Shown here: positions 72-16,066 of the stretch, one piece after another
Numbering within the stretch: position 1 is the first letter of the stretch
Layout of the letters: every line of letters starts with the position of its first letter
Source: Candidatus Hadarchaeales archaeon
Lineage (GTDB): Archaea; Hadarchaeota; Hadarchaeia; Hadarchaeales; JAWBSP01
Assembly: GCA_038842485.1 (NCBI GenBank)
Contig: JAWBSP010000022.1
Span: forward strand, 1-16,361
DNA: 16,361 nucleotides
Direction: 5' to 3'
Position numbers and translations under genes: made by a program
The notes under the pieces: generated by a model
Told to the model about the DNA's origin: nothing
Database searches by the model: none
The model's input: the letters and a program-made list of their open reading frames with translations, nothing else

Positions 72-2963
72 ATGAAGGGATTTGCAGCACTGGCGATGGC
101 AGCCATGTTTGTAGTACAGGTAGCAGTAACGTTCCTGGGAACGGTATCAGCAGGGGTCGATGAGGCTACTGTGACATTCGATCGGGTAAAGGTCCAAGGG
201 GGGTGGTCAGGCATTCTGACCCTAACTGTTGCGAATAGTGCCGGAGCCGCCATCGATAATGTGATACTGTGCATTCCGGGAGGGTGGACTTTCAAGGGAA
301 TGCTGAGGAAAGTACCGAAGGACAATATCGTGTACTTGGTCGACGACAACATTGTGGTTCTCCCCGCCGGAACGGTTGTAGAGGTTTTTGCCGACAGCGC
401 AGATAACATTATCATCCCGGAGAACACGGATGTGATTATTCCAAGGTTGACGTGTTTCTACCATCGGGGGAACCGCTACACACTGGAGGAGAACGCTCTT
501 ATGGAGCCCACCGATAACAGAAGAACAGAGAATTTCGAGACCATGGGGGGGTTAAGTGATGGTTATGTGGACAACGAGGAGAACTTCAGGGTGGGGCAAC
601 CTCTGAGGGTTACGCTATGGCAGGACAACAGGCTTAGGCTTTTGAGCGACACCCTCGTGGTGGTGGACCATGACGACGTGATGATTCTACCGGAAAATCT
701 CTTAGCACAGGTGGTGGCTAGCAACGAGAACCAGCGTGAGAACATGGACGTCGCACCCAAGCAGGGGATAAAGGTCAAAGTCATAGATAACCACTTCAGG
801 GTCGTTTCCGATCCCTTAAACGTTGGTTATTCCATTTCCAGGCGGGGAGAAGTGGTGGAATTAGAGGAGAACATCGTCGTGATACCGGAAAACACAGTGG
901 TAAAAATTGAGGGCTCCCTGAGGGTAAGAATCCCAGAGAACGCACAGGTAATCAGAGAAAATGACACGAAGATCAAGGTTGATCTGAGTCAGGTGGAGAA
1001 CGTTCCAAAGGGCTGGAGCCAGGGGACGTGCTTGGTAGGGAGCCAGCAGGGGTACAGCTGGGCAGGAATCGGGGACAACAAGATTGCAGCCGGAGGCAGC
1101 GAGAGCTTCCCGTTCGCCATAGGGGCACCCACTGAGGCTAAACCCTACCTCTTCGTGGTGGTGATCAAGGATAAATCCGGTGGCATGAAGGATTGGTCTG
1201 TCCAGATCATCGTGGACAACTCCGTAACGGTAAATGTCAGCGTTGACAAGACCTGGGTGGGGAAGAACGAGAACATAACCATCACCGTGAGTTCCGACGA
1301 GCCCATCTGGTTCGACAACGTGCTGGTTTGCGAGAACAACGCTCCTGAGAACGTGAACCTCGAGATGAGCACGACCGACAACAAGACCTACACGGGCGTG
1401 TACACCACAGGGGAGAACGAGGACAGGGACGGCTACCTGACCATCCGCGTGATCAATGTTAGGGACGAGGTTGGGAACTCGGTGTCCGAGATAACCAAGA
1501 GCGACCTTGTGTTCGTTGACCGCCGGCGGCCGGGCCCACCGAGTCTTACAGCGCTCGGCATACCGGTGGGAATAGAGAACAAGAGCGACTGGACGATCTC
1601 AACTTCTCTGAACGAGAACCATGACAACTTAATCTTCAAGCCGGCCGGGTACTTCCCAGAGAATCTCATGCTAGAGATACTGGTGGACAACGCGGTGGCG
1701 GCGAGTGGCAGGGCGAGCTCATTTGGTCTGGTGAACTTCACCCTGACCCTCTCCGAGGGCAAGCACACCGTTGCAGCACGCATCACGGACAAGGCCGGGA
1801 ACGTGGGGGAGGAGAACAGCGAGAATGTTGTCATAGACCTGAGCAAGCCCACCGTGACCTTCGTCTCACCCACGCAGGGCAAGAAGTTCGGTAGGAAAGA
1901 TGTGGGGACGGAAAACACCATTACCATCTCCCTCAAGCTGAGGGACACGGTGCTTGGCATCGAAAACTATGTGATGGCGGACACCGCCGACGAGGCGGAC
2001 AACGAAAACTTCGACAGGGGTTACATAGTGAGGCTGTACAAGGATGGTAGCAAGATAGCCGTCCTCCAACCCACGTCCTATCCCACGCTGGAGAACGTTG
2101 AGAACGTGCTCCCGAACGTCTTCGGAATAACCGCCGACTGGACCTTCGAGAACATATACTGTCTGGGAGCGAGCCCAGAAGGCAAGTACACGGTGGAAGT
2201 GATCGCGGGGGACAACATGGGGGTTCTAAAAGGGAAGGCTCCCCACCGCGTGAAAGAGAATGTGAGCTTCGAGGTGGACCTCACGCCCCCCGATACTCCG
2301 ACCGACGACACCTGCACTGGCAGTATTGAGGCTAATAAGAGTCAGTTCACCCCAACCAAGACTAGGGTTTCTAAGCTAACGCTGATGGGAACCACCGAAC
2401 CGAACGCCACCGTCAAGATATACCGCAGTGTTGCCGGCGGTCCCTGGACGGAGCTGACCAGCACGAAAGCCGGTTCCGATGGGAGCTGGAGCAAAGATGT
2501 GGATCTCACCAAGGGGCAGACGATGGGGATTAAGGTCAGCTACATTGATGAAGCAGGCAACGAGAGCGGAATGTACCTGTATGGCTACCTGCTCTATGAT
2601 GACAGCCCGCCAAAGGTAATTATAGACGCCCAGTACAAGGAGTTCACCACCGACAAGGCCTCGGTCCTGATAACGGGGAGGGTGCAAAAAGATGACTGGG
2701 AGGACTACAACGACATCGAGCTGTGCGTCTCGCCGGAAACAGCATCGGTGAACTTCAACCGCACCAACGGGACCTTCACCGTAAGTGCGGCGGTGAGCGA
2801 GGGTACTAACCTCATCACCGTGGAAGCCAAGGATCCCGTGGGCAACAGGGGCTCGGACACCGCCGTGGTAACGAGGACGGTCACACCCTGGGCCACCTAC
2901 GCAACGATTCTAGTGATCATAGCGCTGGTGCTGGCTGCGGTCGCCATCTTCAGGAAGAAGTAG
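72..2963 (+). CDS. Large membrane-anchored surface protein with Ig-like (Big) domains, S-layer candidate, 963 aa
   Basis: N-terminal signal peptide (MKGFAALAM...VSA). Big-domain motifs RDEVGN, TDKAGN, IDEAGN, KDPVGN, VDLTPP, SEGTNLITVEA. C-terminal TM helix plus RKK. Strong RBS and its own terminator. Confidence 0.8.
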   Translation: MKGFAALAMAAMFVVQVAVTFLGTVSAGVDEATVTFDRVKVQGGWSGILTLTVANSAGAAIDNVILCIPGGWTFKGMLRKVPKDNIVYLVDDNIVVLPAGTVVEVFADSADNIIIPENTDVIIPRLTCFYHRGNRYTLEENALMEPTDNRRTENFETMGGLSDGYVDNEENFRVGQPLRVTLWQDNRLRLLSDTLVVVDHDDVMILPENLLAQVVASNENQRENMDVAPKQGIKVKVIDNHFRVVSDPLNVGYSISRRGEVVELEENIVVIPENTVVKIEGSLRVRIPENAQVIRENDTKIKVDLSQVENVPKGWSQGTCLVGSQQGYSWAGIGDNKIAAGGSESFPFAIGAPTEAKPYLFVVVIKDKSGGMKDWSVQIIVDNSVTVNVSVDKTWVGKNENITITVSSDEPIWFDNVLVCENNAPENVNLEMSTTDNKTYTGVYTTGENEDRDGYLTIRVINVRDEVGNSVSEITKSDLVFVDRRRPGPPSLTALGIPVGIENKSDWTISTSLNENHDNLIFKPAGYFPENLMLEILVDNAVAASGRASSFGLVNFTLTLSEGKHTVAARITDKAGNVGEENSENVVIDLSKPTVTFVSPTQGKKFGRKDVGTENTITISLKLRDTVLGIENYVMADTADEADNENFDRGYIVRLYKDGSKIAVLQPTSYPTLENVENVLPNVFGITADWTFENIYCLGASPEGKYTVEVIAGDNMGVLKGKAPHRVKENVSFEVDLTPPDTPTDDTCTGSIEANKSQFTPTKTRVSKLTLMGTTEPNATVKIYRSVAGGPWTELTSTKAGSDGSWSKDVDLTKGQTMGIKVSYIDEAGNESGMYLYGYLLYDDSPPKVIIDAQYKEFTTDKASVLITGRVQKDDWEDYNDIELCVSPETASVNFNRTNGTFTVSAAVSEGTNLITVEAKDPVGNRGSDTAVVTRTVTPWATYATILVIIALVLAAVAIFRKK

Positions 2964-2975
2964 GCGAACCAAACC

Positions 2976-3006
2976 GTTTTCTATTTTTGTTTTTTCTTTT
3001 TGTTTC
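2976..3006 (+). terminator. Oligo(T) archaeal terminator between convergent genes
   Basis: Successive T runs (TTTTCTATTTTTGTTTTTTCTTTTGTTTC) just after the stop at 2963. Confidence 0.7.
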
Positions 3007-3768
3007 TTATTTCCTGTAAGGGCCTAGAGTGTGTTCCAGCCGGCCCTTCCTGAAGATTCTTATTTTTCCATCTTGCTCTGAAACCACCACCCCGGTCGCT
3101 TCCGTCTCGGCGGTCATGCAGGCCACCGCGTGGTGCCTGGTCCCGAGGCCCTCCACCTTCACCCTCGCCCTCGCGGCCAGTCTGACACCAAAGGCCCGGA
3201 TCACGCCCCGGTCGTCGAGGACAAAGGCCCCGTCCAGATGGCTGGCTAGGGTGGTGAGGTAGTCCCAATACTTCCTCTCCCATATCCTCACCGTGTGCCC
3301 CTTGAAGGGGTTGGGGAAGAGGGGGGTGGAGAGCCTGAGAACCCTCTCGGCGTCCCCGATCACCAAGGCCGCACCCACCTTCTTGCTCGAGAGCTCTTGG
3401 GCGAACTCCACCGTCTCCATCACCGGGGTCTCGGAGATGACGAGGGGCCACTCGGGCACCTTTAGCGAAATCCAGGTGTCCCCGTTCCCCCCGTTCAGCC
3501 TCGCGAAGATCACCCACTCGCCGGGAGAAAGGAGCCTTTGCTTGAGCCCCACGGAGAGGACGAGGTTGGCTAGCTCGTGCGTGTCTTGGAAGGAGAACTT
3601 GAGCAGGATGGGTTCCGGTCTGACCGCCCTGCTTACCTCTGGACTGGTGGTGAAAACGAGGAAATTCCCCTCGGGAAGTTCCTGTACGTCCTCAAGGAAA
3701 TAGATTAGCTTGTAACCGCGCTTGGCCGCATGCTCAAAAGCCATCTCCGCCGCAGGGGTTATTCCCAA
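3007..3768 (-). CDS. dacZ: Diadenylate cyclase (DisA_N/DAC domain), archaeal DacZ-like
   Basis: DAC motifs GAALVIGD, LDGAFVL, GLGTRHHA, VVSEQDG, with NPFKG upstream as in archaeal DacZ. About 105-aa N-terminal extension. TTG start with GGGAGG RBS. Confidence 0.85.
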   Translation of the reverse strand: MGITPAAEMAFEHAAKRGYKLIYFLEDVQELPEGNFLVFTTSPEVSRAVRPEPILLKFSFQDTHELANLVLSVGLKQRLLSPGEWVIFARLNGGNGDTWISLKVPEWPLVISETPVMETVEFAQELSSKKVGAALVIGDAERVLRLSTPLFPNPFKGHTVRIWERKYWDYLTTLASHLDGAFVLDDRGVIRAFGVRLAARARVKVEGLGTRHHAVACMTAETEATGVVVSEQDGKIRIFRKGRLEHTLGPYRK

Positions 3769-3774
3769 CCTTTT

Positions 3775-3804
3775 CCTCCCACCCCTGCTAGCTTAAAATT
3801 TTTG
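3775..3804 (-). promoter_or_regulatory. Internal promoter and RBS for the diadenylate cyclase
   Basis: Minus strand reads CAAAAA-TTTTAAG (BRE/TATA-like) about 25-35 nt upstream of the TTG start, then GGGAGG. Confidence 0.55.
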
Positions 3805-3814
3805 ACTTCACTCC

Positions 3815-4360
3815 TTAAATCCCTTTCATTCGAGAGTGCAAGCTCCGTCCCTGCGCGTCCACCACCACCAGAAGCGGCCCGAACTCCCTGACTTCCAGAA
3901 CCCACATGGCCTCGACGCCGAGCTCCGGCCAGTGGACCCCCCTCACCCCCCTCACGAAGCTGGCCGCGAGCGCACCCGCCCCTCCGGTGAAGGCTAGGTA
4001 TACGCACCCCAGACCGGAGACCCTCCTCGCTACCCTTGGATCCATTCCCCCCTTTCCCACTAGGATCCTGACTCCCGTCCGCCTGACGAACTCCTCCTGC
4101 ATCTCATCCAGTCTGGAGGACGTGGTGGGGCCGCAGGAGAGAACCTCGTAGCCCCCTCCCCTCCGCACCACGATGGGGCCGCAGTGGTAAACGGCGCCCC
4201 CCCTGAGGTCCACCGGCAGGCTCCCCCCTCCTCTCAGGGTTTCAAGGATCTTTCTGTAGGTCCTGTCCCTCGCCGTGTAGAGCAGACCCGTCAGCCTTAC
4301 GAACTCGCCCGCCCTGAGCCTCTCCAGCTCCTCGCCCGCCGGGAGTAGGATTTCCCTCAC
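3815..4360 (-). CDS. Class I (Fe-S) fumarate hydratase/tartrate dehydratase beta subunit
   Basis: Motifs LTGLLYTARD, YHCGP, GPTTSSR, VGKGGM, ELGVEAMW. Start reassigned to GTG 4360, which overlaps the alpha stop (GTGA). The ORF-track start 4420 lies inside the alpha gene. Confidence 0.9.
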   Translation of the reverse strand: MREILLPAGEELERLRAGEFVRLTGLLYTARDRTYRKILETLRGGGSLPVDLRGGAVYHCGPIVVRRGGGYEVLSCGPTTSSRLDEMQEEFVRRTGVRILVGKGGMDPRVARRVSGLGCVYLAFTGGAGALAASFVRGVRGVHWPELGVEAMWVLEVREFGPLLVVVDAQGRSLHSRMKGI

Positions 4361-5163
4361 TGGAACACCCGGATTCTTCCCCCTTTCACCCTGAGCGATG
4401 CCCTCCTCGCCACCCAGCACTGCAGGCTCACCGCGAGGGGGAGGGTGGCCCGGTGGCAGGGTGCCTGCAAAGCCCTGACCCCCAGAACCGTCGTTTCCCC
4501 TCCCCAGCCCATCGGTCCGATCTTCAGCTGGTTTGCCCTCCCCGCTATCTCCTCCTCCAGCTCCGCGAGTTCTCCCTCCGAGCCGAGCGGTCTGAGCAGA
4601 GCCTTCTCGGCCAGCAGGCAGGCCTTCTCCGCCGTTCCGCCGATCCCCACCCCCACAATGACGGGCGGGCAGGGTTTCCCCCCAGCCTCCCGCAGCAGCT
4701 CCAGAACCGACCTGACGATGCCCTCCCGATCCCCGGGTTTGAGCAGGTAGAGCCTGCTCCAGTTCTCCGCGCCGCCCCCCTTCACCAGCAAATCGATTTC
4801 GAGTTCCCTCCCTCTTTCGAAGTGAATATCGTACCAGCTCCTCTCCTCCCCCGTCAGCGGCTGGAGGGTGTTGGGCCTCAGGGGGACCCGCTCGGAGGCC
4901 AACCTGAATCCCTTCTCTATCTCCTCCTCCAGCCCGTTCCAGCGTGGGGCCCGCACGAAGAAGGTCAGGATCCCAGTGTCCTGGCAGATGGGAACCCCCC
5001 GCCTTGAGGCGAGCGAGAGGTTTTTGAGCATGCAGTCGAGCTGGACCCGCGCTATCCGGTTTCTCTCCCTCCTCCTAGCCTTCCTGAGAGCGGTGACCAC
5101 ATCACTGGGTAGTTGGGTTTCGGCGAGCCTTATCATCTCGGCAATCTGTCGGTGAAGCCTCAC
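4357..5163 (-). CDS. Class I (Fe-S) fumarate hydratase/tartrate dehydratase alpha subunit
   Basis: Motifs [45 protein letters not shown] (three Fe-S Cys). Confidence 0.92.
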
Positions 5164-5225
5164 CCATTCTTAGGAGCCGAATTAGAAAAGCTCGCCCCAC
5201 GCATTTAAGAAGTGGGCATGAATTT
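5164..5225. promoter_or_regulatory. Short divergent promoter region between the fumarase genes and ilvD
   Basis: 62-bp gap between divergent starts. TTTAAG at 5204-5209 is about 22-25 nt before the ilvD TTG, with no RBS, so probably leaderless. Confidence 0.5.
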
Positions 5226-6887
5226 TTGTTGAAGCTGAGGAGCAGAGAGGTTACGGAGGGAATTGAGAGCCTGCCCCGGAGGGCCCTCCTCAAGGCGGGC
5301 GGACTGGTGGACGAGGACCTGGGGAGGCCTCTGGTTGCCATAGCGAACTCTTGGAACGAGATAGTCCCGGGCCACCTTCATCTCAGGGAGGTCGGAAGGG
5401 CCGTGGCGAGGGGGGTGAGGCTGGCCGGTGGTACCCCCCTCGAGTTCAACACCATCGCCATCTGCGACGGGATAGCCATGGGGACTCCGGGGATGTGCTA
5501 CTCTCTCCCCTCGAGGGAAGTCATCGCCGACAGTGTGGAGCTCATGGTGGAGGCGCACAGGTTTGACGCGGTGGTCGCGGTGTGCAGCTGCGACAAGATA
5601 GTGCCCGGGATGCTGATGGCCCTCGCCCGCCTTAACCTCCCCTCAATCGTGGTGACGGGGGGCCCCATGCAGCCGGGGGAGTGGAGGGGGGAGAAGCTGG
5701 ACGTGATAAGCGCCTTCGAGGCGGTGGGGAGGCTCAAGGCTGGGAGGATCGGGCTGAAGGAGGCAAAGGAGATAGAGAACAGGAGCTGCCCCGGTCCGGG
5801 TTCCTGCGCCGGGCTCTTCACCGCCAACACCATGGCCTGTTTGGTTGAGGCGCTGGGAATGTCTCTCCCCGGCATGGCGACCTGTCACGCGACCGACTCC
5901 AAGAAGCTCAGGCTGGCGGAGGAGAGCGGGAGGCTGGTGGTTCAGCTGCTCAGGAGGAACCTAACGCCCAGCAAGATCATGACCAGGGCATCCTTCGAGA
6001 ACGCCATCGTGGTGGATCTGGCGCTAGGGGGCTCGACCAACACCACCCTCCACCTTCCGGCCATCGCCCACGAGCTTGGAATCAGGCTGGATCTGGAGCT
6101 CTTCGACAGGCTCAGCAGGAGGGTCCCGCAGCTCTGCAATCTGAGGCCTGGGGGACCTCACTTCATGCTTGATCTGGAAAGGGCGGGAGGGGTGCCGGCT
6201 CTCATGAAGCAGCTTGGGAGGCTGATTAGGCAGGGAGCCCTCACGGTCACGGGGAGGACGGTGGGTGAGAACCTGAGGGTGGTCAAGGTTCTGGATTCCT
6301 CGGTGATCAGGCCGCTCACCAGGCCCTACCGGAGGGAGGGGGGAATAGCCATCCTCTACGGTACTCTCGCTCCCAAGGGTTCCGTGCTCAAACTTGCCGG
6401 GCTCCCCCCCAGGTTGCGGAAGTTCAGGGGGAGGGCGAGGTTTTTCAGGGGGGAGGAGGAGGCGGTCGCGGCGCTGAGCGCGGGCAAGGTCGGGGGCAGG
6501 GAAGTGATGGTGATCGCGTACGAGGGACCGAAGGGGGGTCCGGGGATGAGGGAGATGCTCTCGGTCACCTCGATGCTGGTCGGAATGGGTCTCTCGGAGG
6601 AGGTCGCCCTGGTCACGGATGGGAGGTTTTCTGGCGGGACCCGGGGAATATGCGTAGGTCACGTCTCCCCGGAGGCGGCCGAGAGGGGACCCATCGCTCT
6701 CGTGCGCGACGGTGACCCCATCCTGATTGATTTGGAGAGGCGGAGAATCGATCTGCTCGTCCCGCAGGAGGAGCTGAAGCGGAGGCTGGAGGTCCTGCCG
6801 CCCTTCAAGCCCAAGGTGAGGAGGGGCTACCTCTCTCTCTACTCCCGAATGGTGAGTTCGGCCTCTGAAGGGGCCGTCAGGATATAG
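5226..6887 (+). CDS. ilvD: Dihydroxy-acid dehydratase
   Basis: Motifs [74 protein letters not shown]. Start is TTG 5226 or 5229. Confidence 0.97.
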
Positions 6888-6958
6888 GGGATGCCGTTTT
6901 CACCGGCTGGATGCTGGTTCGTCCTCGATGCTCAAAAAAATCCCTTGACTGATTGAGA

Positions 6959-8203
6959 ATGGCAACGCTTGCGGAAAAAATCCTCAGCCGGGCGGTTGGC
7001 AGGAGGGTCAGCCCGGGGGAAATTGTGGAGCCGCCCATTGATTTTGCCATGATGAACGACATAACGGGGCCGCTCACCCTCAACATCCTGAAGGAGCTCA
7101 GAATGGAGAGGCCTTGGAACCCCCAGAAGGTGGTGCTGATACTCGATCACCAGTCACCCGCCTGCTCGGTGGAGGCCGCGACGGCGCACGTGGAACTGAG
7201 GGAATTCGCCTCCAGAACCGGAATCAGATTTTTCGAGGTGGGGGAGGGTGTCTGCCATCAGGTTTTCATGGAGAGGGGATTCGCCCAGCCCGGCATGCTG
7301 ATAGTGGGGGCGGATTCCCACACCTGCACCTATGGGGCGCTGGGGGCCTTCGCCACGGGAGTGGGATCCACCGACATGGCTCACGTGCTTGCCACCGGAA
7401 GGCTCTGGCTCAGGGTCCCGGAAAACTTCAGGATAGAGATAAGCGGGAGGCTCCCCCCCGGTGTCTTTGCGAAGGACCTGATTCTCCACATCATCGGTGA
7501 GGTCGGTTCGGACGGTGCCAACTACATGGCGGTCGAGTTCCAGGGCGAGACCGTCTCAAACCTCGGCATCTCCGAGAGGATGGTTCTCTGCAACATGGGG
7601 GTTGAGATGGGGGCAAAAACCGCCTTGGTGGCACCCGACGAGAAGACCAGGGAATGGTTCGGGGGGAAGGGAATCAAGGTGGAGGAGATCAGGAGCGATC
7701 CGGATGCCAGCTGGCAGAGGGAGGAGCAGATGGAGGTGAGCCGTCTGGAGCCCCAGGTCGCGTGCCCGCACCGGGTAGACAACGTCAGGCCGGTGGTGGA
7801 GGTTGAGGGGAGGGAGATAGACCAGGCCTTTCTGGGCAGCTGCACCAACGGGAGGGTGGAGGATCTGGTGGAGGCCTGCAGGATCTTGAAGGGGAGGAAG
7901 GTGAAGGCCAGAATGATCGTCTCCCCGGCTTCTAGGGAGGTGTACCTGGGGGCGCTGGAGATGGGGCTCGTGAGGATCCTGCTCGAGGCGGGGGCTACCG
8001 TGGTGGCACCCTCCTGCGCCGCATGCATGGGCGGGCACGTGGGAATTCTCGGACCGGGAGAGGTCTGCATCTCCTCCTCCAACAGGAACTTTAGGGGAAG
8101 AATGGGCAGTCCGGAGGCCGAGATATACCTGGCCTCCCCGGCGACGGTTGCGGCCTCGGCGGTGGAGGGAAAAATCGCCGACCCGAGGAGGTACCATGCC
8201 TAA
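6959..8203 (+). CDS. leuC: 3-isopropylmalate dehydratase/homoaconitase large subunit
   Basis: Motifs TLAEKIL, GVCHQ, GADSHTCTYGA, GSCTNGR, PSCAACMG, SNRNFRGRMG. ATG 6959 preferred over TTG 6953. Confidence 0.93.
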   Translation: MATLAEKILSRAVGRRVSPGEIVEPPIDFAMMNDITGPLTLNILKELRMERPWNPQKVVLILDHQSPACSVEAATAHVELREFASRTGIRFFEVGEGVCHQVFMERGFAQPGMLIVGADSHTCTYGALGAFATGVGSTDMAHVLATGRLWLRVPENFRIEISGRLPPGVFAKDLILHIIGEVGSDGANYMAVEFQGETVSNLGISERMVLCNMGVEMGAKTALVAPDEKTREWFGGKGIKVEEIRSDPDASWQREEQMEVSRLEPQVACPHRVDNVRPVVEVEGREIDQAFLGSCTNGRVEDLVEACRILKGRKVKARMIVSPASREVYLGALEMGLVRILLEAGATVVAPSCAACMGGHVGILGPGEVCISSSNRNFRGRMGSPEAEIYLASPATVAASAVEGKIADPRRYHA

Positions 8204-8684
8204 GGTGTGGGTGTTCGGCGACAATGTCTCGACCGACGACATCATCGCCGGGAAGTACCTGACCAGCACAGACCCGGTCTATCTCGCCTCCCACGTCATG
8301 GAAAACCTCGACCCGGAGTTCGCTAGGAGGGTTGGCCGTGGCGATGTGATCCTAGCTGGGAAAAACTTCGGCTGTGGGTCGAGCAGGGAGCACGCACCGC
8401 TCGCGCTAAAGGCAGCAGGGATTTCCGCCGTTGTTGCCCGCTCCTTCGCCAGGATATTTTTCAGAAACTCCATAAACCTGGGGCTCCCTCCCCTGACCTG
8501 CGAGACGACGGAGGGCTTTCAGGGGGGCGATGAGGTGAGGCTGGATCTGGAGAGCTTCACCCTTCACAACCTCAGGTCGGGCGCGGTGCTCAAGCTCAGC
8601 CCTCTCCCACCCTTCATCCTGCAAATTCTGAGGGCGGGGGGAATGGTGGAGTATCTGAGGAGACGATGCGCTTCAGGCCCGTAG
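8196..8684 (+). CDS. leuD: 3-isopropylmalate dehydratase/homoaconitase small subunit
   Basis: Motifs [34 protein letters not shown] 8196 overlaps the end of leuC. Confidence 0.93.
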
Positions 8685-9202
8685 GAGTTTTTGAGGCCAT
8701 CAGGCTCAGGCGGAGCATCCGGGATTATCTGGACAAACCGGTTGAGCCCGAAAAGCTGGAGCGCCTGCTGGAGGCGGCGAGGCTCGCCCCCTCTGCTAGG
8801 AACGAACAGCCTTGGGAGCTGGTGGTGGTCACCGACAGGAAGCTCAGGGCGAGACTGGTCCCGGCATGCCTCTTTCAGAGATTCGTGGGCAAGGCACCGG
8901 TTTTCATCGCAGGGGTGGTGGATCCAACCAAGAAGTGGGCGCCCGCGGATCTCTGCATCGCACTTCAGCAGCTTGCCCTAGAGGCGGTGGAGCTGGGTCT
9001 GGGAACTTGCTGGATAGGGGCCTTTTCGGAGCGGCTGGTGAGGTTCCTGCTGGGGGTTCCAAAAAACAGGAGGGTCTTTGTTTGCATGACGGTAGGATAC
9101 CCGGCGAAGATTCCTCCCCCTCACCCCAAAAAGCCGTTTGCGAAACTGTTTCATCTCAACCGCTACGGCAGGACTTTCGGCAACTTCACGCGGGGCTCGT
9201 GA
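8666..9202 (+). CDS. Nitroreductase family flavoprotein
   Basis: Motifs AIRLRRSIRDY, APSARNEQPW, ELGLGTCWIG, VGYP. Confidence 0.9.
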   Translation: MRFRPVGVFEAIRLRRSIRDYLDKPVEPEKLERLLEAARLAPSARNEQPWELVVVTDRKLRARLVPACLFQRFVGKAPVFIAGVVDPTKKWAPADLCIALQQLALEAVELGLGTCWIGAFSERLVRFLLGVPKNRRVFVCMTVGYPAKIPPPHPKKPFAKLFHLNRYGRTFGNFTRGS

Positions 9203-9249
9203 GGTATTCCTTCGCGGGGGCTTTTTAACGGCAAGACTTGTACCCCCCA

Positions 9250-9445
9250 CCGAGTTTGGCACACATGTAGCAAACCCACAAAAGGTGCGCGAGCAGGCAT
9301 TGGTTCGGGTCATCCTTAGCCTGTTGAGATACACTATTCCGCGATGTCGCTAGGTGTCTCTGTTTGTTTGCAACACGTGTAGCAAAAAGTTAGAGGCTCG
9401 CCAAGTGTTCATTTTTCGACGAGGTCTGATTCCTCCCAAACTCGG
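9250..9445. repeat. 10-bp perfect inverted repeat framing 196 bp
   Basis: CCGAGTTTGG (9250-9259) and CCAAACTCGG (9436-9445). Confidence 0.6.
9255..9386. repeat. Two near-palindromic 20-bp boxes 112 bp apart
   Basis: TTTGGCACACATGTAGCAAA (9255-9274) and TTTGCAACACGTGTAGCAAA (9367-9386) are 17/20 identical. The second is palindromic except for one pair. Confidence 0.75.
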
Positions 9446-9496
9446 CAGCGCTTTCGGCCCCCGGCGTAAAGTTAAAGGAAACAACCAAACCAATGA

Positions 9497-10624
9497 ATGA
9501 GGTACAGGATTTCGGTCCTTCCCGGTGACGGCATAGGGCCGGAGGTGGTGAGGGAGGGGGTGAAGGTTCTGGAGGCTCTCGCCGAGGTAACCCCCGGTCT
9601 CGATTTCGAATTCATTTATTTCCCCTGCGGCGGCGAGCACTACCTGAAAACCGGGGAGCTCATCACCGACGAGATGCTGGAAGAGATGTCCAAAACCGAC
9701 GCCATATATTTGGGGGCGGTTGGCGATCCCAGAGTTCCAACGGGGGTCCTGGAGCAGGGAATCCTGCTGAGGCTCAGGTTTCACTTCGACCAGTACGTCA
9801 ACCTGAGGCCGGTCAAGCTGTATCCCGGCGTCCCCTGTCCCCTGAGGGAACCCAAGAACATCGACTTCTATGTGGTCAGGGAGAACACCGAGGACTTTTA
9901 TATCGGGCTGGGGGGAAGGTTTTCAGGGAGGGGCAGGGAGCAGCTGGAGTTGGTGAGGGCCCTGTACAAGGCGAGGTTCGGTCTGGATTTGGAGTCGGAT
10001 GCGGACGAAATCGCCTACCAGCTAGGCGTCATCAGCCGGAGGGGGGCGGAAAGGGTCATCAGATACGCCTTCGAGCTGGCGAGGAGGAAGGGGAAACGAA
10101 GGGTGACCTCGGTCGACAAGGCAAATGTCCTCACCCACGTTTACTCGCTCTGGAGGGAGGTCTTCGAGCGGGTTTCGAAGGAGTATCCCGAAATTGAGGC
10201 CGAGGAGGCGTTCGTGGATGCCACTGCCATGTGGTTCCTGAAGAAGCCCGAGTGGTATGGGGTGGTGGTGACGCCCAATATGTTCGGCGACATCCTCACC
10301 GATCTCGGGGCCATGCTTCAGGGGGGAATGGGAATGGCACCTGGGGGTAACCTCAACCCCGAGGGCGTGAGCATGTTCGAACCCATCCACGGCTCGGCCC
10401 CCAAGTACGCGGGCAAGAACATCGCCAACCCACTGGCTACCATTCTCGCTGCTTGCATGATGCTGGAAGAGCTGGGCGAGGTTCAGGCGGCGCTCACGCT
10501 CGAGCAGGCGGTTAAAAGGCAGCTCGCGGAGGGTAAAGTGTTGCCCTACGATTTGGGCGGGCACGCCAGGACTTCCGAGGTGGGTGACGAACTGGTTCGC
10601 AAAATAAGGGAAATTAGTTCCTAG
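9497..10624 (+). CDS. leuB: 3-isopropylmalate dehydrogenase (beta-decarboxylating dehydrogenase family)
   Basis: Motifs [68 protein letters not shown]. Lies next to leuCD and ilvD. Confidence 0.88.
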
Positions 10625-11148
10625 TGAAAGAGGGTCTTCTGAAGCTGGGTCTCAGGCTGCTGGGGATTCTCCTGTATGTGGGGCCCCTGCTTGCCGCCCT
10701 CTCGGTTCAAGGAGGGGATTTCATGAAAGCGGCGTTCGACCCCTCGCAGGTGGAGAAAATCCAACAAAAGATGGAGAACCTCTTCCAGTTCTCCGAAAAT
10801 ACCATGGTCAAGGAGAACTCCTGGCTGGGTGAGAACGGCGGTTGCGTCACGGTGAGGTTCACCTCCACCTCTCCGTTTCCCATGAGGATCGAGAACTTCT
10901 CGGGGTGGGCATCGTGCCCCCAGCACCGCGTGAGGCTGGCGTGGTTCGAACTACCGCAGCCGGTCGAAATCAATCCGGGGGAAACCAAGCGCTTCACTCT
11001 GACTTTCACTCCCACCCTAGGAGCCTCCCTTCATGTACTCCTCCAACATCTCGGCGTTTGGCCGGAAACGGAGCTGGAAAATGCGAGGATGAAGATTAGG
11101 ATGCTCGGCGCCGAAATTGAGTTGGCGCTCGGCGAGTATGAAGGTTAA
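10624..11148 (+). CDS. Hypothetical membrane-anchored protein with a probable extracellular beta-sandwich domain
   Basis: GTG overlaps the leuB TAG. N-terminal hydrophobic helix, then beta-rich sequence (VTVRFTSTSPFPMRI, VEINPGETKRFTL) reminiscent of LEA_2/WHy folds. Confidence 0.7.
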   Translation: MKEGLLKLGLRLLGILLYVGPLLAALSVQGGDFMKAAFDPSQVEKIQQKMENLFQFSENTMVKENSWLGENGGCVTVRFTSTSPFPMRIENFSGWASCPQHRVRLAWFELPQPVEINPGETKRFTLTFTPTLGASLHVLLQHLGVWPETELENARMKIRMLGAEIELALGEYEG

Positions 11149-11725
11149 TCCAGTGGGGGCGGTGGCGGGCGCTCTCATTCTTCTCCTCCCCTTCTTGGGC
11201 CCCTGGTGGCATGCCTCGCTCGGGGAGGCCGCGGTGGTCGAGCTTTCTCCCTTCGGCTACCGCGTCTGCGTGCTGGGCGAGCTCCTCCATTCCACGCTGG
11301 CGAGCTACCTCCTGCTGGGAGCGAAGGTCTCGGTCATCCTGGGAGGGATTTTTCTGCTGCTTGGTTCGCTTTTCCCGGGTCGATGGTGGAGCAGACCCTT
11401 GGTGAGGTTTGGGGTCATGAAGGTCTTCTGGATGGTGATCTCGCTCGTGGTTTTCCTAGTGGTGGCCTCCTTCGTTGCGAACTTTCTCCTCCGTTCGATC
11501 AGGCCAGAAGATGTCACACTAGACCTCAGTCTTCCCTTCCTGACGGGGAGTTCCGAGCTGCGGCTCTCCGGCGGAAACATGAGCGCCAGCATGCCGGTAG
11601 ATCTACACTTCACAGGGGTTTTCTGGATGGCGGTGGTTGTGGCGGGCTTTGGGCTGGCGGCAAGGATCACCGCAGGCCGGTTCCAAGGGGCACTGCCAGC
11701 CAAGCCCGCTAAGCCTAACAAATAG
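11138..11725 (+). CDS. Hypothetical integral membrane protein (about 4 TM helices)
   Basis: Four hydrophobic segments and PFLGPWW after TM1. ATG 11138 overlaps the upstream gene end. Confidence 0.72.
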   Translation: MKVNPVGAVAGALILLLPFLGPWWHASLGEAAVVELSPFGYRVCVLGELLHSTLASYLLLGAKVSVILGGIFLLLGSLFPGRWWSRPLVRFGVMKVFWMVISLVVFLVVASFVANFLLRSIRPEDVTLDLSLPFLTGSSELRLSGGNMSASMPVDLHFTGVFWMAVVVAGFGLAARITAGRFQGALPAKPAKPNK

Positions 11726-11740
11726 CTGGCGTATTTCGAA

Positions 11741-12046
11741 ATGGGCAGGAAGGTGAGGTTGTTACTGGATGAGATGTACACCGGTTTCAGGGAGTACCTG
11801 GAAAGTCTGGGTTGGCAGGTGCTCACGGTGGAGGAGGCAGGGTTGCGGGGTCAGGAGGACAGAAAGGTAGTGGATTTCGCGCGGCGCAGGGGCCTCCTGA
11901 TAGTAACACAAGATGCCAAGATGGCCGACCTCGCCGCTCTCAGGGGGGTGAAGTGCGTTCTGGTTTCGAATCTCATGATTGCTAAACTGATTGATGCCGA
12001 GATAAGAAGGAGATTGTCTGTGGCGGATAAGAGGCGAACCACCTAG
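11741..12046 (+). CDS. DUF5615/Mut7-C-like PIN-domain protein
   Basis: Acidic PIN pattern LLLDEM...LGWQV.TV..GL.G.ED..V..FA....IVTQD..M. Confidence 0.8.
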   Translation: MGRKVRLLLDEMYTGFREYLESLGWQVLTVEEAGLRGQEDRKVVDFARRRGLLIVTQDAKMADLAALRGVKCVLVSNLMIAKLIDAEIRRRLSVADKRRTT

Positions 12047-12225
12047 CACAGGGATGCCACAAACCGTACCAGAACTTGCGCACGCAGCGGGAAAGCGCGG
12101 TGATTCTGTGGGCGGAGAACTCTGAATTGCCTTGAAAACTGGAAGTAGGTTTACCCCGTAGTGGGAAAACATCTCGGCTTTTTATTGAAACGCTGAGGTG
12201 CTTTCGAAGATCAGGGTTAGTTTAC

Positions 12226-12250
12226 TGCACACGTGTGCATAACTTTAAAT
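12226..12250 (+). promoter_or_regulatory. 14-bp perfect palindrome next to a TATA-like box
   Basis: TGCACACGTGTGCA (12226-12239), then TTTAAAT (12244-12250), upstream of the CDS at 12312. Confidence 0.6.
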
Positions 12251-12311
12251 TCGAGACTCAATCGCCAAACGTGTTAGGGAGCTCGATTAATGCCGCTGTT
12301 TTTACATATAG

Positions 12312-13703
12312 ATGGGCGGGGATCCCCCTAGTGCGTGGATGGGGGGAGCCTTTATTGTGATATTGATTTTGTCGGCTACCCCAGTGTCAATTCAGTCTCT
12401 CCTTCCGGAGAACTACCCCAACAACCCCCCCATCCTGAGCATGGGCAAGGTTCTCCCAACTTCGGGGATGCTTGGGACAATCTTCACCTATGAGGGAATT
12501 TACACGGACCCAGATGGGGACCCTCCCTCACTGGTTACGGTTTGTATAGACGACGTTCCATTTAGCATGCGGATGGCTGGCGGAGCTCCGGAGAACGCCC
12601 TCTTCCAGCTTTCCATCGAACTAGGTGGTCTGGGAACCCGCACTTTTCATTTTGAAGCGGTTGATGCACGGGGGGCGCGCACCAGACTTCCTCCGGAGGG
12701 TGAGTTCGAGGGGCCGGTGGTGTTTCCGCCACCGGTGGAGAACAGGGTGGACAATCAGCCACCCGTCATCACGCTTCTCCACCTAACGGGGAATCCGCGG
12801 GCGGGTCAAACCGTTGAGATCCGGGTGCGGGTGACAGACGATACCCCGCCCATCCAAGTAGTCCTTTCGATGGGCGAAACGGGTGGGCAGTCGATCCTCA
12901 AATCGACCGCGCTCTCGGAGTCCGGCGATTTTGACCATCGGTTCGCAGCTCCCGAGCCTGGGCAACACCCCCTGTTCATTACCGCGACCGATGGCGCAGG
13001 AAACACGGGGCTGTATGTCACAAATATAACAGTCCTTCCGCCAGAGGAAATTCCAGAAAAGGGAGAAAATGAATATACGGCTCCGGCCCCCGCCCCCACC
13101 GAAAACATTCCGGTAAGGAGCATTTTTGAAAACTTGGAAGGCGCGGTGAAAACGATTCAGCTCGTGACCGGGGAGGAGAATGCGAAGGTGGTCGAAAATA
13201 AAATATTGGAGGGCAAGGCTGCTTACCTTCAGCTCACGCTTGAGAATAACCGGCCCACCGCCACCAAGATTTACGACAACCGCTACATCCAGCTCGTGGT
13301 GACCAAGGTCGAGGTGGGGAAGGAGGTGGAAGTGGCCGTGGATTCGCCCACACCGGCCGGAAAGACGGTTATCTTAAACTTGGAGGAAGCGCTTCTTCCA
13401 TCGCAGGTTGTGGTGCTGGTGGATAACGTTCAAATCCCGATGGCGGACAACTACGAGGATGTGATGGACCCCACCGGGGAAAACACCTGCGAGTATCTCC
13501 TCCTGATGGGAGCGCGGCAGGTTCAGGTCCTCATCTCCATCCCGCACTTCTCACGTAGGGTCATCACCATCAGGGGCCCGATCGCCGCCGGGGGAACGTG
13601 GACCCCGCTTCTTCTTTCGATCAGCGTGCTGGTTATCGTGGCCGTGCTCCTTTACACGTTCCGAAAGACTAGGCCCCAGCGCTCCGCGTTTGCACCGTTC
13701 TGA
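12312..13703 (+). CDS. Membrane-anchored surface protein with Ig-like domains, 463 aa
   Basis: Hydrophobic N-terminus (alternative start ATG 12339). Motifs NNPPILS..YTDPDGDPP, DNQPPVI, ATDGAGN, a Pro-rich linker, ISIPHFS and a C-terminal TM helix plus RKTR. Confidence 0.78.
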   Translation: MGGDPPSAWMGGAFIVILILSATPVSIQSLLPENYPNNPPILSMGKVLPTSGMLGTIFTYEGIYTDPDGDPPSLVTVCIDDVPFSMRMAGGAPENALFQLSIELGGLGTRTFHFEAVDARGARTRLPPEGEFEGPVVFPPPVENRVDNQPPVITLLHLTGNPRAGQTVEIRVRVTDDTPPIQVVLSMGETGGQSILKSTALSESGDFDHRFAAPEPGQHPLFITATDGAGNTGLYVTNITVLPPEEIPEKGENEYTAPAPAPTENIPVRSIFENLEGAVKTIQLVTGEENAKVVENKILEGKAAYLQLTLENNRPTATKIYDNRYIQLVVTKVEVGKEVEVAVDSPTPAGKTVILNLEEALLPSQVVVLVDNVQIPMADNYEDVMDPTGENTCEYLLLMGARQVQVLISIPHFSRRVITIRGPIAAGGTWTPLLLSISVLVIVAVLLYTFRKTRPQRSAFAPF

Positions 13704-14939: not shown

Positions 14940-14980
14940 CCGAGCCTGCAGAATGGTTGAATAAAGCAACAGTAGTTTTG

Positions 14981-16066
14981 ATGAGACTCCAGGTTGCTGG
15001 GCTCTCGGATGGGGGAGAGGGTGTGGCGGAAGTGGGGGGTAGGCGGATAAAGGTCTTGGGCGCCCTCCCCGGAGAGGAGGTGGAGGCGACGATGCTCACG
15101 GAATCCGTGGCCATGGTGAAGGAAGTGGCGACGGCTTCCCCCGACCGGGTTAATCCTCCCTGCCCCCTCTTCCCCCGCTGCACGGGTTGTCAGCTTCAGC
15201 ACCTCCGCTTTCCCTCACAGTTGGAGTTCAAGCGTACCAAGCTGGAGAGGATTCTCAGGGTAAGAGTTGAGCCCCCCATCCCTTGCGGGGAGTGGGAGTA
15301 CAGAAACCATGCAAGGCTCACCGTCCAGCGGGGGGAGGTGGGTTTCGTGAACAAGTACTCGGAGGAGTTCCTGAGGGTGGATCGCTGCCTTCTCATGGCA
15401 CCCAAGATAAACGAGCTCCTTTCCAAACTCCAGGACAGATGCACCAGCACCATGGTCTCCATCCGGGTGGGGATTAGGACGGGGGAGTATCTCATCCAGC
15501 CCGAGCTCCCCCTGCCAGAGCCCGCGACGGGACAACCCTTCTATCACGAACTCCTGCTCGGCCGAAGGTTCAGGGTTTCCTCCCCCTCTTTCTTTCAGCC
15601 CAACACGGACGGGACCGAGACCATGATCCGGATCATGAGGGAGTGGATAGGGAGTGCCGGAAAAATCGTGGATGCCTATGCGGGGGTTGGAACCTTCTCC
15701 GCCCTGCTCGCGGACCTCGCGGAGGAGGTGATCGCCGTGGAGGAGTCCCCGTCGGCCGAGCGGGATGCCAGATTCAACCTGAGGAACCTGGCAAACGTCA
15801 CCTTCCTGAGGGCGAAGGTCGAGGAGGTTCTCCCGCTCGAGAACACGGACGTGCTGATCTTGGATCCGCCCAGACAGGGATGCTCCCTCGCCGTTCTGGA
15901 GACTATCAAGCGGGCGCCCCCGAAACGTATAATATACGTTTCCTGTAACCCGCACAGCCTTGCCAGGGACCTCAGGCAGCTCGGATTCACCGTCGAGAAG
16001 ATTCAGCCCGTCGATCTCTTCGCCCAGACCCAGCACATTGAGGCCCTCGCCCTGCTGACTCCATGA
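14981..16066 (+). CDS. RlmD/RumA-family RNA (uracil-5)-methyltransferase with TRAM domain and Fe-S motif
   Basis: TRAM-like N-terminus (GEG..ALPGEEV), CPLFPRCTGCQLQH plus a distal Cys, FFQPN, DAYAGVG (SAM binding), LDPPRQG, YVSCNP (catalytic Cys), DLFAQTQHIE. ATG 14981 preferred. RNA target unknown. Confidence 0.92.
   Translation: MRLQVAGLSDGGEGVAEVGGRRIKVLGALPGEEVEATMLTESVAMVKEVATASPDRVNPPCPLFPRCTGCQLQHLRFPSQLEFKRTKLERILRVRVEPPIPCGEWEYRNHARLTVQRGEVGFVNKYSEEFLRVDRCLLMAPKINELLSKLQDRCTSTMVSIRVGIRTGEYLIQPELPLPEPATGQPFYHELLLGRRFRVSSPSFFQPNTDGTETMIRIMREWIGSAGKIVDAYAGVGTFSALLADLAEEVIAVEESPSAERDARFNLRNLANVTFLRAKVEEVLPLENTDVLILDPPRQGCSLAVLETIKRAPPKRIIYVSCNPHSLARDLRQLGFTVEKIQPVDLFAQTQHIEALALLTP

Follow-up and report, generated by a model that had tools for sequence, protein, structure and literature searches.

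Why do three exported proteins encoded at one archaeal locus carry most of their asparagines directly behind an aspartate or a glutamate? The question is raised by the window, the whole stretch of 16,361 nucleotides analyzed here, which is contig C22 of genome G000, a Candidatus Hadarchaeota metagenome-assembled genome (MAG) of 943 kb in 27 contigs that is 88.9% complete. A 963-aa surface protein (72..2963, + strand) contains 67 Asn, 44 of which follow Asp or Glu (28 EN and 16 DN), against 9.0 expected from composition. The dipeptide, here written [DE]N, accounts for 14 of the 21 Asn (10 EN and 4 DN; expected 2.4) of a 463-aa protein with hydrophobic N- and C-terminal segments (12312..13703, + strand; Asn codons at 12411..13484) and for 6 of the 7 Asn, all as EN (expected 0.8), of a 174-aa exported or anchored protein (10624..11148, + strand; Asn codons at 10777..11082). 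Binomial p values against the D+E content of each protein itself were 1e-22, 3.5e-9, and 1e-5, respectively. Cytoplasmic controls from the + strand of the same window, assigned by Pfam, gave 3/11 for IlvD (dihydroxy-acid dehydratase, 5226..6887), 2/11 for a LeuC-type aconitase-family large subunit (6953..8203), 1/9 for LeuB (isopropylmalate/isocitrate dehydrogenase family, 9497..10624), and 1/11 for a member of the RNA uracil-5 methyltransferase family (14957..16066). We propose, with a probability of roughly 0.55, that [D/E]-N-{P}, where {P} stands for any residue except Pro, is a new N-glycosylation sequon of Hadarchaeales that would be read by a remodeled AglB.

The pattern had been described from hand counts in an earlier note on this DNA, and all of these counts, including the four controls and the nine reverse N-[DE] dipeptides (7 NE and 2 ND) among the 67 Asn of the 963-aa protein, were reproduced exactly. 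The note had also argued from mixed codons that no DNA repeat is involved and had remarked that most sites lack a hydroxy amino acid two positions downstream. Both points stood: eight different codon pairs encode [DE]N in 72..2963, so a DNA repeat is not the source, and Ser or Thr at +2 was found at 5/44, 0/14, and 1/6 sites of the 963-aa, 463-aa, and 174-aa proteins. Pro did not occur at +1 of any [DE]N in the three proteins.

The comparison was extended to the whole of G000. A set of 913 proteins was called with a home-made open reading frame (ORF) and codon-score rule, which is crude, and the proteins were sorted by hydrophobicity into cytoplasmic, exported (signal peptide or anchor), multi-transmembrane (multi-TM), and other classes. 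A hydrophobic stretch at the N terminus and no more than two TM segments qualified a protein as exported. This class includes false positives such as a thermosome; misclassification can do no more than weaken its contrast with the cytoplasmic class. Ratios of observed to expected counts (O/E) were calculated relative to the D+E and N content of each protein itself. Asn followed an acidic residue in 363 of 868 cases in exported proteins (41.8%, O/E 3.48) and in 499 of 4204 cases in cytoplasmic proteins (11.9%, O/E 0.91; Fisher p ~1e-84). The difference between the two classes for which the earlier note had proposed to look was thus present throughout the proteome, and it was large. Multi-TM proteins gave 100/510 (O/E 2.82). 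The median [DE]N fraction per protein was 0.32 for exported and 0.12 for cytoplasmic proteins (Mann-Whitney p 1e-9), and sites were spaced at ~1.4 per 100 aa in extracellular domains versus 0.26 in cytoplasmic proteins. Among all 400 dipeptides, none was as over-represented in exported proteins as EN (O/E 3.82) and DN (O/E 2.84); the cytoplasmic values were 1.01 and 0.62. The effect was specific for Asn, as evident from the exported O/E values of [DE]Q (0.49), [DE]D (0.80), [DE]S (0.65), [DE]T (0.87), and [DE]G (1.08), and it was directional, with an O/E of 0.71 for the reverse dipeptide in exported proteins. No common family unites the [DE]N-rich proteins, which comprise Ig strings, a protein with Peptidase_C25, beta-propeller, and PKD domains (38/73), an MMPL transporter (11/23), two metallophosphoesterases of the exported class (11/26 and 9/19), a pilin-like DUF7289 protein (9/12), and transglutaminase-like proteins. 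Catalytic domains of enzymes contained sites, too.

Two proteins with convincing signal-like N termini were free of the motif, namely C23:12381-13679 (DUF4350; 0/14) and C17:21989-23041 (0/10). They might face the cytoplasm, have been acquired recently, or be otherwise exempt.

The residues surrounding the sites were then compared with background. Pro at +1 was found in only 4 of 363 exported [DE]N sites of G000, compared with 45 of 505 other exported Asn and 45 of 499 cytoplasmic [DE]N (Fisher p 1.3e-7). The same three classes gave 22/1133, 153/2154, and 155/1981 when all Hadarchaeales samples were pooled. Ser or Thr occupied +2 in 39 of the 363 exported sites (10.7%; S+T background, 12.5%), and the canonical N-X-S/T sequon was not enriched in exported G000 proteins (fraction 0.119 at an S+T frequency of 0.125). 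Further features of the exported sites were an enrichment of Pro at -2 (2.1-fold), a roughly 2-fold excess of aromatic residues at +4, a depletion of Ser at +3, and a depletion of acidic residues at -2 (D 0.44-fold and E 0.61-fold of background). Avoidance of deamidation was considered as a cause and rejected: Gly at +1 was at background level (7.7% versus 7.9%) and Ser at +1 was enriched 1.6-fold.

Exclusion of Pro at +1 is a property of oligosaccharyltransferases (OSTs). In solved OST-peptide complexes it results from main-chain pairing of the sequon with the TIXE loop (external loop 5, EL5) and not from the WWDYG motif (PMC8342417). A sequence context that keeps the Pro exclusion and has no Ser/Thr preference at +2 is therefore what would be expected for an OST in which only the Ser/Thr pocket has been altered.

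The single STT3-family match in G000 is a 783-aa protein encoded outside the window (C1:59907-62258). It matched PF02516 with 38.4 and 44.7 bits (cut-off, 24.5), and a profile built from 14 AglB sequences recovered human STT3A (E 4.6e-34), AfAglB (E 2.2e-18), and PglB (E 1.8e-5). The AlphaFold2 (AF2) model of the protein had a predicted local distance difference test score (pLDDT) of 83 and a predicted template modeling score of 0.80, with pLDDT <50 in EL5, and its top 19 Foldseek matches in the PDB were all PglB, STT3, or AglB chains (E 2e-16 to 1e-10). The closest named record, 67% identical, came from a Candidatus Hadarchaeota MAG (L036). The acids of the two DXD-type motifs, Asp39 (SDSG) in the first (EL1) and Asp153 (FDRE) in the second, were invariant in 14 of 14 AglBs including that of G041, the only genome of another order of the phylum that was sampled; they align with FDPYF and YDNE of STT3A. 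At the position of the WWDYGY motif of human STT3A, the G000 protein has EWSYGH, both in the pairwise and in the profile alignment, the latter running through the motif. The variant [EQ]WS[YF]GH was found in 30 of 30 AglB loci (G000 and 29 relatives from families f1-f5 of the order), whereas the AglB of G041 (637 aa; [DE]N 0/14) retains WWDYGY. The place of the DK motif reads D-x-x-R-x-x-x-M in G000; across the order, the Lys position is occupied by R, W, Q, or D and the last position by M, I, L, or V (all read by eye). An insertion of ~60 aa follows the DK motif in Hadarchaeales AglBs. The inspection of AglB motifs called for by the earlier note thus revealed one homologue without WWDxG and with a DK-motif Lys that, read by eye, appears not to be conserved.

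WWDXG together with DK/MI forms the Ser/Thr pocket (PMC8342417, PMC5131992, PMC11407970), and WWDXG is described as necessary for catalysis (PMC5131992). Since WWDXG is missing, we class the G000 enzyme with the divergent homologues of this family and not with its canonical members. Judged from alignments and the predicted structure, it is a true homologue with a GT-C/OST fold, and its acceptor-reading parts appear to be rebuilt.

Several side observations concern the AglB genes of relatives. In family f2, an insertion of ~50-60 aa before EL5 splits the match into two pieces. The matches of several relatives (G007, G010, G033, and others) contain 1-4 in-frame TGA or TAG codons, which probably sit in read-through between match pieces; L018, L030, and L031 each have an uninterrupted ORF (738-795 aa). 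AglBs of 1,000-1,130 aa occur in several relatives (L011, L012, L015, L024, L025, and L026), and the C-terminal repeat-domain extensions of such long AglBs are [DE]N-rich, with whole-protein counts of, for example, 26/51 and 26/61.

The distribution of the dipeptide within the phylum was determined for 66-400 kb sampled from each of 11 genomes and processed like G000. In all ten Hadarchaeales samples the exported O/E was raised, and the cytoplasmic O/E lay between 0.80 and 1.11. The exported values were 4.52 for G002 (a congener of G000), 3.65 for G003, 3.47 for G037, 3.17 for G008, 2.06 for G030, 1.99 for G016, 1.87 for G009, 1.43 for G011, 1.39 for G018, and 1.38 for G005, the last resting on 43 Asn only. 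G041, with its canonical AglB, showed no bias (67/470, O/E 0.93). The homologue of the 963-aa protein was strongly marked even in the four samples with the lowest values (49/91, 48/80, 38/78, and 19/33); no homologue of this protein was found in G041. The few protein pairs available between G000 and the G041 sample gave 12/63 versus 7/52 for seven multi-TM pairs and 11/20 versus 2/9 for an MMPL pair. A search with an exported metallophosphoesterase returned only seven close homologues, with no outgroup among them. The residue at the first motif position, E or Q, was rejected as a cause of the variable strength: G008 has Q at an O/E of 3.17, and G009 has E at 1.87.

A control reaching beyond the phylum was provided by the AglB family alone, whose members have a large extracellular domain themselves, G041 being the sole outgroup at the proteome level. 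A search of 1.84 billion representatives yielded 126 AglB matches. [DE]N accounted for 355 of 954 Asn (37%, O/E 3.73) in the 31 AglBs with [EQ]WS[YF]GH and for 258 of 2122 Asn (12%, O/E 1.44) in the 58 AglBs with WWDxG; the remaining 37, fragments and other variants, gave 223/766 (29%). Homologous folds from elsewhere, which the earlier note had named as a place where the bias might equally appear, are thus much poorer in [DE]N when they carry the canonical motif. Further variants at the WWDxG position were EWAIGH, HWSYGH, PWSYGH, DWEIGY, HWELGY, PWPVGY, DWYLGY, and HWEMGY, and the [DE]N fraction in nine such AglBs (P0047, P0060, P0062, P0066, P0073, P0074, P0077, P0082, and P0089) was mostly 0.2-0.45.

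We consider it an even bet that the Hadarchaeales AglB has dropped the near-universal rule of Ser/Thr at +2 and selects Asn by the carboxylate at -1, giving the sequon [D/E]-N-{P}. The proposed mechanism starts from the conserved acids of the first two catalytic motifs and from the observed change of WWDYG, in the Ser/Thr pocket, to [EQ]WS[YF]GH. A hydroxy amino acid at +2 would then no longer be required by AglB, and a carboxylate at -1 would be required or strongly preferred. Selection would have filled the extracellular domains with [DE]N, and the acceptor peptide would still pair with the main chain of EL5, leaving Pro excluded at +1. AglB activity, reading of the -1 carboxylate, and glycosylation of Asn are inferred steps of this mechanism. 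The suggestion of the earlier note that an acidic(-1)-Asn signal of exported proteins is read by a divergent OST gains support from the proteome, lineage, and motif comparisons, the modification itself being presumed.

The behavior of individual sites was followed in orthologues. Fifteen exported pairs (58% identity) and 108 cytoplasmic pairs were compared between G000 and G002. Of 64 aligned [DE]N sites in the exported pairs, 47 retained both residues, 8 only the acid, and 9 neither one, with no case (0) of an Asn that had lost its acid; the corresponding cytoplasmic counts were 49, 31, 8, and 11. For the 963-aa protein, 32 homologues were found, and all those with a named source are from Hadesarchaea or Hadarchaeales. 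Each has 50-70% of its Asn in [DE]N, except for one outlier with 34%, and each has 0-1 [DE]NP. In an alignment of 17 sequences of this family (33-58% identity), Asn at the [DE]N columns of the reference was preceded by an acid in 484 of 507 cases, and D and E interchanged in 30 of 47 well-populated columns. A site was present in at least one sequence at 145 columns, 57 of which were singletons, and the number of sites per homologue was nearly constant (37-46). With a conserved core, a variable periphery, and an unchanging density, the sites look like a population of sequons.

The 963-aa protein itself consists of a signal-like N-terminal segment, a string of Ig-like beta-domains (Big_13 and Big_6), and a C-terminal TM anchor (2889..2954, + strand; a helix of aa 940-961 in the AF2 model). 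The statement of the earlier note that the three proteins share nothing beyond generic Ig-like motifs held in that Pfam assigned Ig-like domains only to the 963-aa protein and no family to the other two, and it was too narrow in that the 963-aa protein is a conserved surface protein of Hadarchaeales. Its AF2 model is all-beta (pLDDT 83.7), and among the multi-Ig structures that Foldseek matched to the model was the S-layer protein of Nitrosopumilus (8c8m). The 963-aa protein probably serves Hadarchaeales as a protein of the S-layer type or as a major component of the cell surface. All 44 sites lie in aa 62-730 (255..2261, + strand). By secondary structure, the only property mapped, 32 of the 44 Asn are in coil and 7 are inside strands, which comprise 43% of all residues; the sites are thus mostly in loops. 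The membrane-proximal domains (aa 731-939; 2262..2888, + strand; Big_6 and Glucodextran_B-like) contain eight Asn, none of them in [DE]N and four in canonical N-X-S/T, and the membrane-proximal part of the family consensus is likewise without [DE]N.

A number of observations weigh against a sequon read by AglB. Signal strength varied from 1.4 to 4.5 across samples even though all of them have the variant AglB motif, the outgroup is a single genome, and the relatives are non-independent samples. In the alignment of 17 sequences, Asn was more conserved at the reference [DE]N columns than elsewhere (0.68 versus 0.43), and 25 columns hold a site in at least 12 of the 17 homologues; such a conserved core of positions is equally compatible with a structural role. 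In the 963-aa model, 12 of 44 [DE]N Asn stand directly before a beta strand, but so do 6 of 23 other Asn. Pro was enriched at +2 (1.7-fold) and at +3 (1.70-fold in G000 and 1.24-fold in the pooled samples) of the exported sites, whereas in canonical sequons Pro is disfavored at +3 too (PMC8342417), so the binding register past +1 would need to differ. Short extracellular loops of multi-TM proteins, assigned by a Kyte-Doolittle TM finder and the positive-inside rule, were not enriched. The first version of this inside/outside test gave 31/147 inside and 42/165 outside (p 0.42); six parameter sets all placed the outside value above the inside value, with p from 0.2 to 4e-8 and values of ~1 for short loops on both sides. 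The test is thus sensitive to parameters, and long "inside" segments had O/E values of 1.1-3.3, which are probably due to mis-assignment, so we regard it as weak support only. The Glu of the TIXE/SVSE motif appears not to be conserved, and AglB of Hadarchaeales may accordingly differ from conventional OSTs: the equivalent of this Glu in G000, Glu303, aligns with SVSE of STT3A and SIAE of G041 and is E, D, Q, T, or a gap within the order, in a loop where the alignment is uncertain. Nine residues upstream of this position lies an invariant Glu, Glu294 (YAxEM), suggesting that EL5 may have been re-registered in Hadarchaeales AglBs. Finally, genes for glycan assembly seemed sparse in the 89%-complete G000: PF00953 (AglH/Alg7-type) was not found, and one GT2 was (C5:26626-26985). 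If an N-glycan is made, it may be short, or its synthesis may begin on dolichyl phosphate with a GT2.

The strongest competitor to a sequon is a lineage-specific structural or physicochemical device of extracellular domains that is unrelated to AglB. [DE]N could serve as a turn or beta-strand N-cap, as a Ca2+ or Mg2+ ligand pair, or as a solubility or anti-aggregation element for a hot, reducing subsurface; the altered AglB motif would in that case be coincidental or point to something else. Metal binding and turn stabilization are also among the alternatives listed in the earlier note. The location of sites in loops and often right before strands, their high positional conservation in the 963-aa family, the D/E interchange, which would fit a charge or ligand role, and the aromatic residues at +4 and Pro at -2, which suggest recurrent local structure, all speak for it. 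A few sites also resemble motifs that we take to be typical of bacterial Ig-like domains (DNTPT-like and AGN). The physics of folding is universal, however, and the bias is absent in G041 and in WWDxG AglBs. The motif is also carried by unrelated folds, including the catalytic domains of enzymes, and is strictly directional and Asn-specific, with no enrichment of Gln, Asp, or Ser after an acid. In AglB itself, a conserved Asn is preceded by Arg in G041, by His in human STT3A, and by Glu in most Hadarchaeales, and the PED after it has become PEN. In an extended chain, neighboring side chains point in opposite directions and would make a poor ligand pair. On balance, we judge a structural device to be unlikely, although it deserves to be taken seriously.

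A cadherin-like arrangement is a special case of this kind. PEN is a Ca2+-binding motif of cadherins, and P-E-N followed by a beta strand recurs in the 963-aa protein, in keeping with the enrichment of Pro at -2. Unlike cadherins, the three window proteins have no cadherin Pfam domain, and the motif occurs in non-Ig folds and is lineage-specific.

Alternatively, [DE]N might be read by an Asn-directed extracytoplasmic activity other than AglB, such as an oligosaccharyltransferase working independently of AglB or an enzyme for cross-linking, hydroxylation, deamidation, or cleavage at Asn. The proteome statistics call for a reader without naming one, the TIXE position of AglB appears not to be conserved, and glycan-assembly genes seem sparse. 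G000 moreover encodes several exported transglutaminase-like and C25 peptidase proteins, and an AglB-independent route of N-glycosylation has been reported for Haloferax volcanii (PMC5131992). Against this, no candidate enzyme was found, and the boundary of the signal coincides with that of the AglB motif change, both across ten genomes and one outgroup and within the AglB family itself. The exclusion of Pro at +1 matches the known acceptor binding of OSTs, and about one site per 20-25 residues would seem too dense for cleavage or cross-linking. Another reader is still less probable than a structural device. It is very improbable that composition, gene calling, or a handful of repetitive giant proteins produced the signal: although gene and export calls are crude, four proteins supply 198 of the 363 sites, and Asn is scarce (2.2% in cytoplasmic proteins) in this GC-rich genome, O/E takes the content of each protein into account, eight codon pairs are used, the exported class still gave 165/535 (O/E 2.58) without the four giants and 145/507 (O/E 2.39) without them and the window contig, and GC content or poverty in Asn was rejected as a cause, G008 (GC 0.46) having the signal at an O/E of 3.17 and G041 (GC 0.43) lacking it.

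Compared with known systems, the proposed sequon [D/E]-N-{P} resembles N-X-S/T in its central Asn, its restriction to exported parts of proteins, its location in loops, the near absence of Pro at +1, and its high density on a major surface protein; its candidate reader is homologous to canonical OSTs and, according to the model, has their fold. The proposed sequon differs in having no Ser/Thr preference at +2, a strong preference for D/E at -1, an enrichment of Pro at +3, and an enzyme without WWD. PglB of the Campylobacter type recognizes an extended sequon, D/E-X-N-X-S/T, with the acid at -2 (PMC8342417, PMC4894442). As there, an acid upstream of the acceptor Asn would help to define the site in Hadarchaeales; unlike there, the acid is at -1 (it is depleted at -2), Ser/Thr at +2 is dispensable, and the enzyme is an archaeal AglB. 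The reader of the -2 acid in PglB is a basic residue at a spacing of 12-13 positions. No conserved basic residue was seen by eye 12-13 positions after Glu294 in the AglB alignment. The 963-aa protein, on which the motif is denser than on any other, resembles archaeal S-layer glycoproteins built of Ig-like domains, such as that of Nitrosopumilus maritimus (PDB 8c8m), in its string of Ig-like domains, its signal peptide, and its C-terminal anchor. It differs in that its sequence homologues, where their source is named, come only from Hadesarchaea or Hadarchaeales. A full-text search, with subscription journals and supplements outside its scope, found no literature joining AglB with Hadesarchaea and nothing relevant on glycosylation in Hadarchaeota or on non-canonical sequons of archaea. 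Relative to known N-glycosylation, enzyme family and acceptor atom would be unchanged, and the recognition code would be different.

Two further genes lie between those of the surface proteins in the window. A DAC-domain protein (di-adenylate cyclase-type, similar to cyclic di-AMP synthases) is encoded at 3007-3768 on the - strand, and a small DUF5615/PIN-like protein at 11741-12046 on the + strand. The first base of the GTG start codon of the 174-aa protein is the last base of the leuB stop codon (position 10624). Translation of this small surface protein may thus be coupled to leuB, a gene of leucine biosynthesis.

If [D/E]-N-{P} is indeed read by AglB, Hadarchaeales would provide the first natural lineage of OSTs whose sequon does without a hydroxy residue, and the acceptor code would have been replaced naturally across a whole archaeal order. 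The peptide requirements for activation of Asn, and the relation of specificity to catalysis, would become directly testable. Glyco-engineering could gain a two-residue tag together with an orthogonal enzyme. Counting of N-X-S/T would miss nearly all sites in these organisms, and prediction of glycosites in uncultured archaea can err accordingly. The rarer AglB variants (PWSYGH, HWSYGH, DWEIGY, and HWELGY) hint at more private sequons in uncultured archaea. Should the motif instead be structural or metal-binding, it would still represent an unexplained, lineage-specific rule of extracellular protein design in Hadarchaeales.

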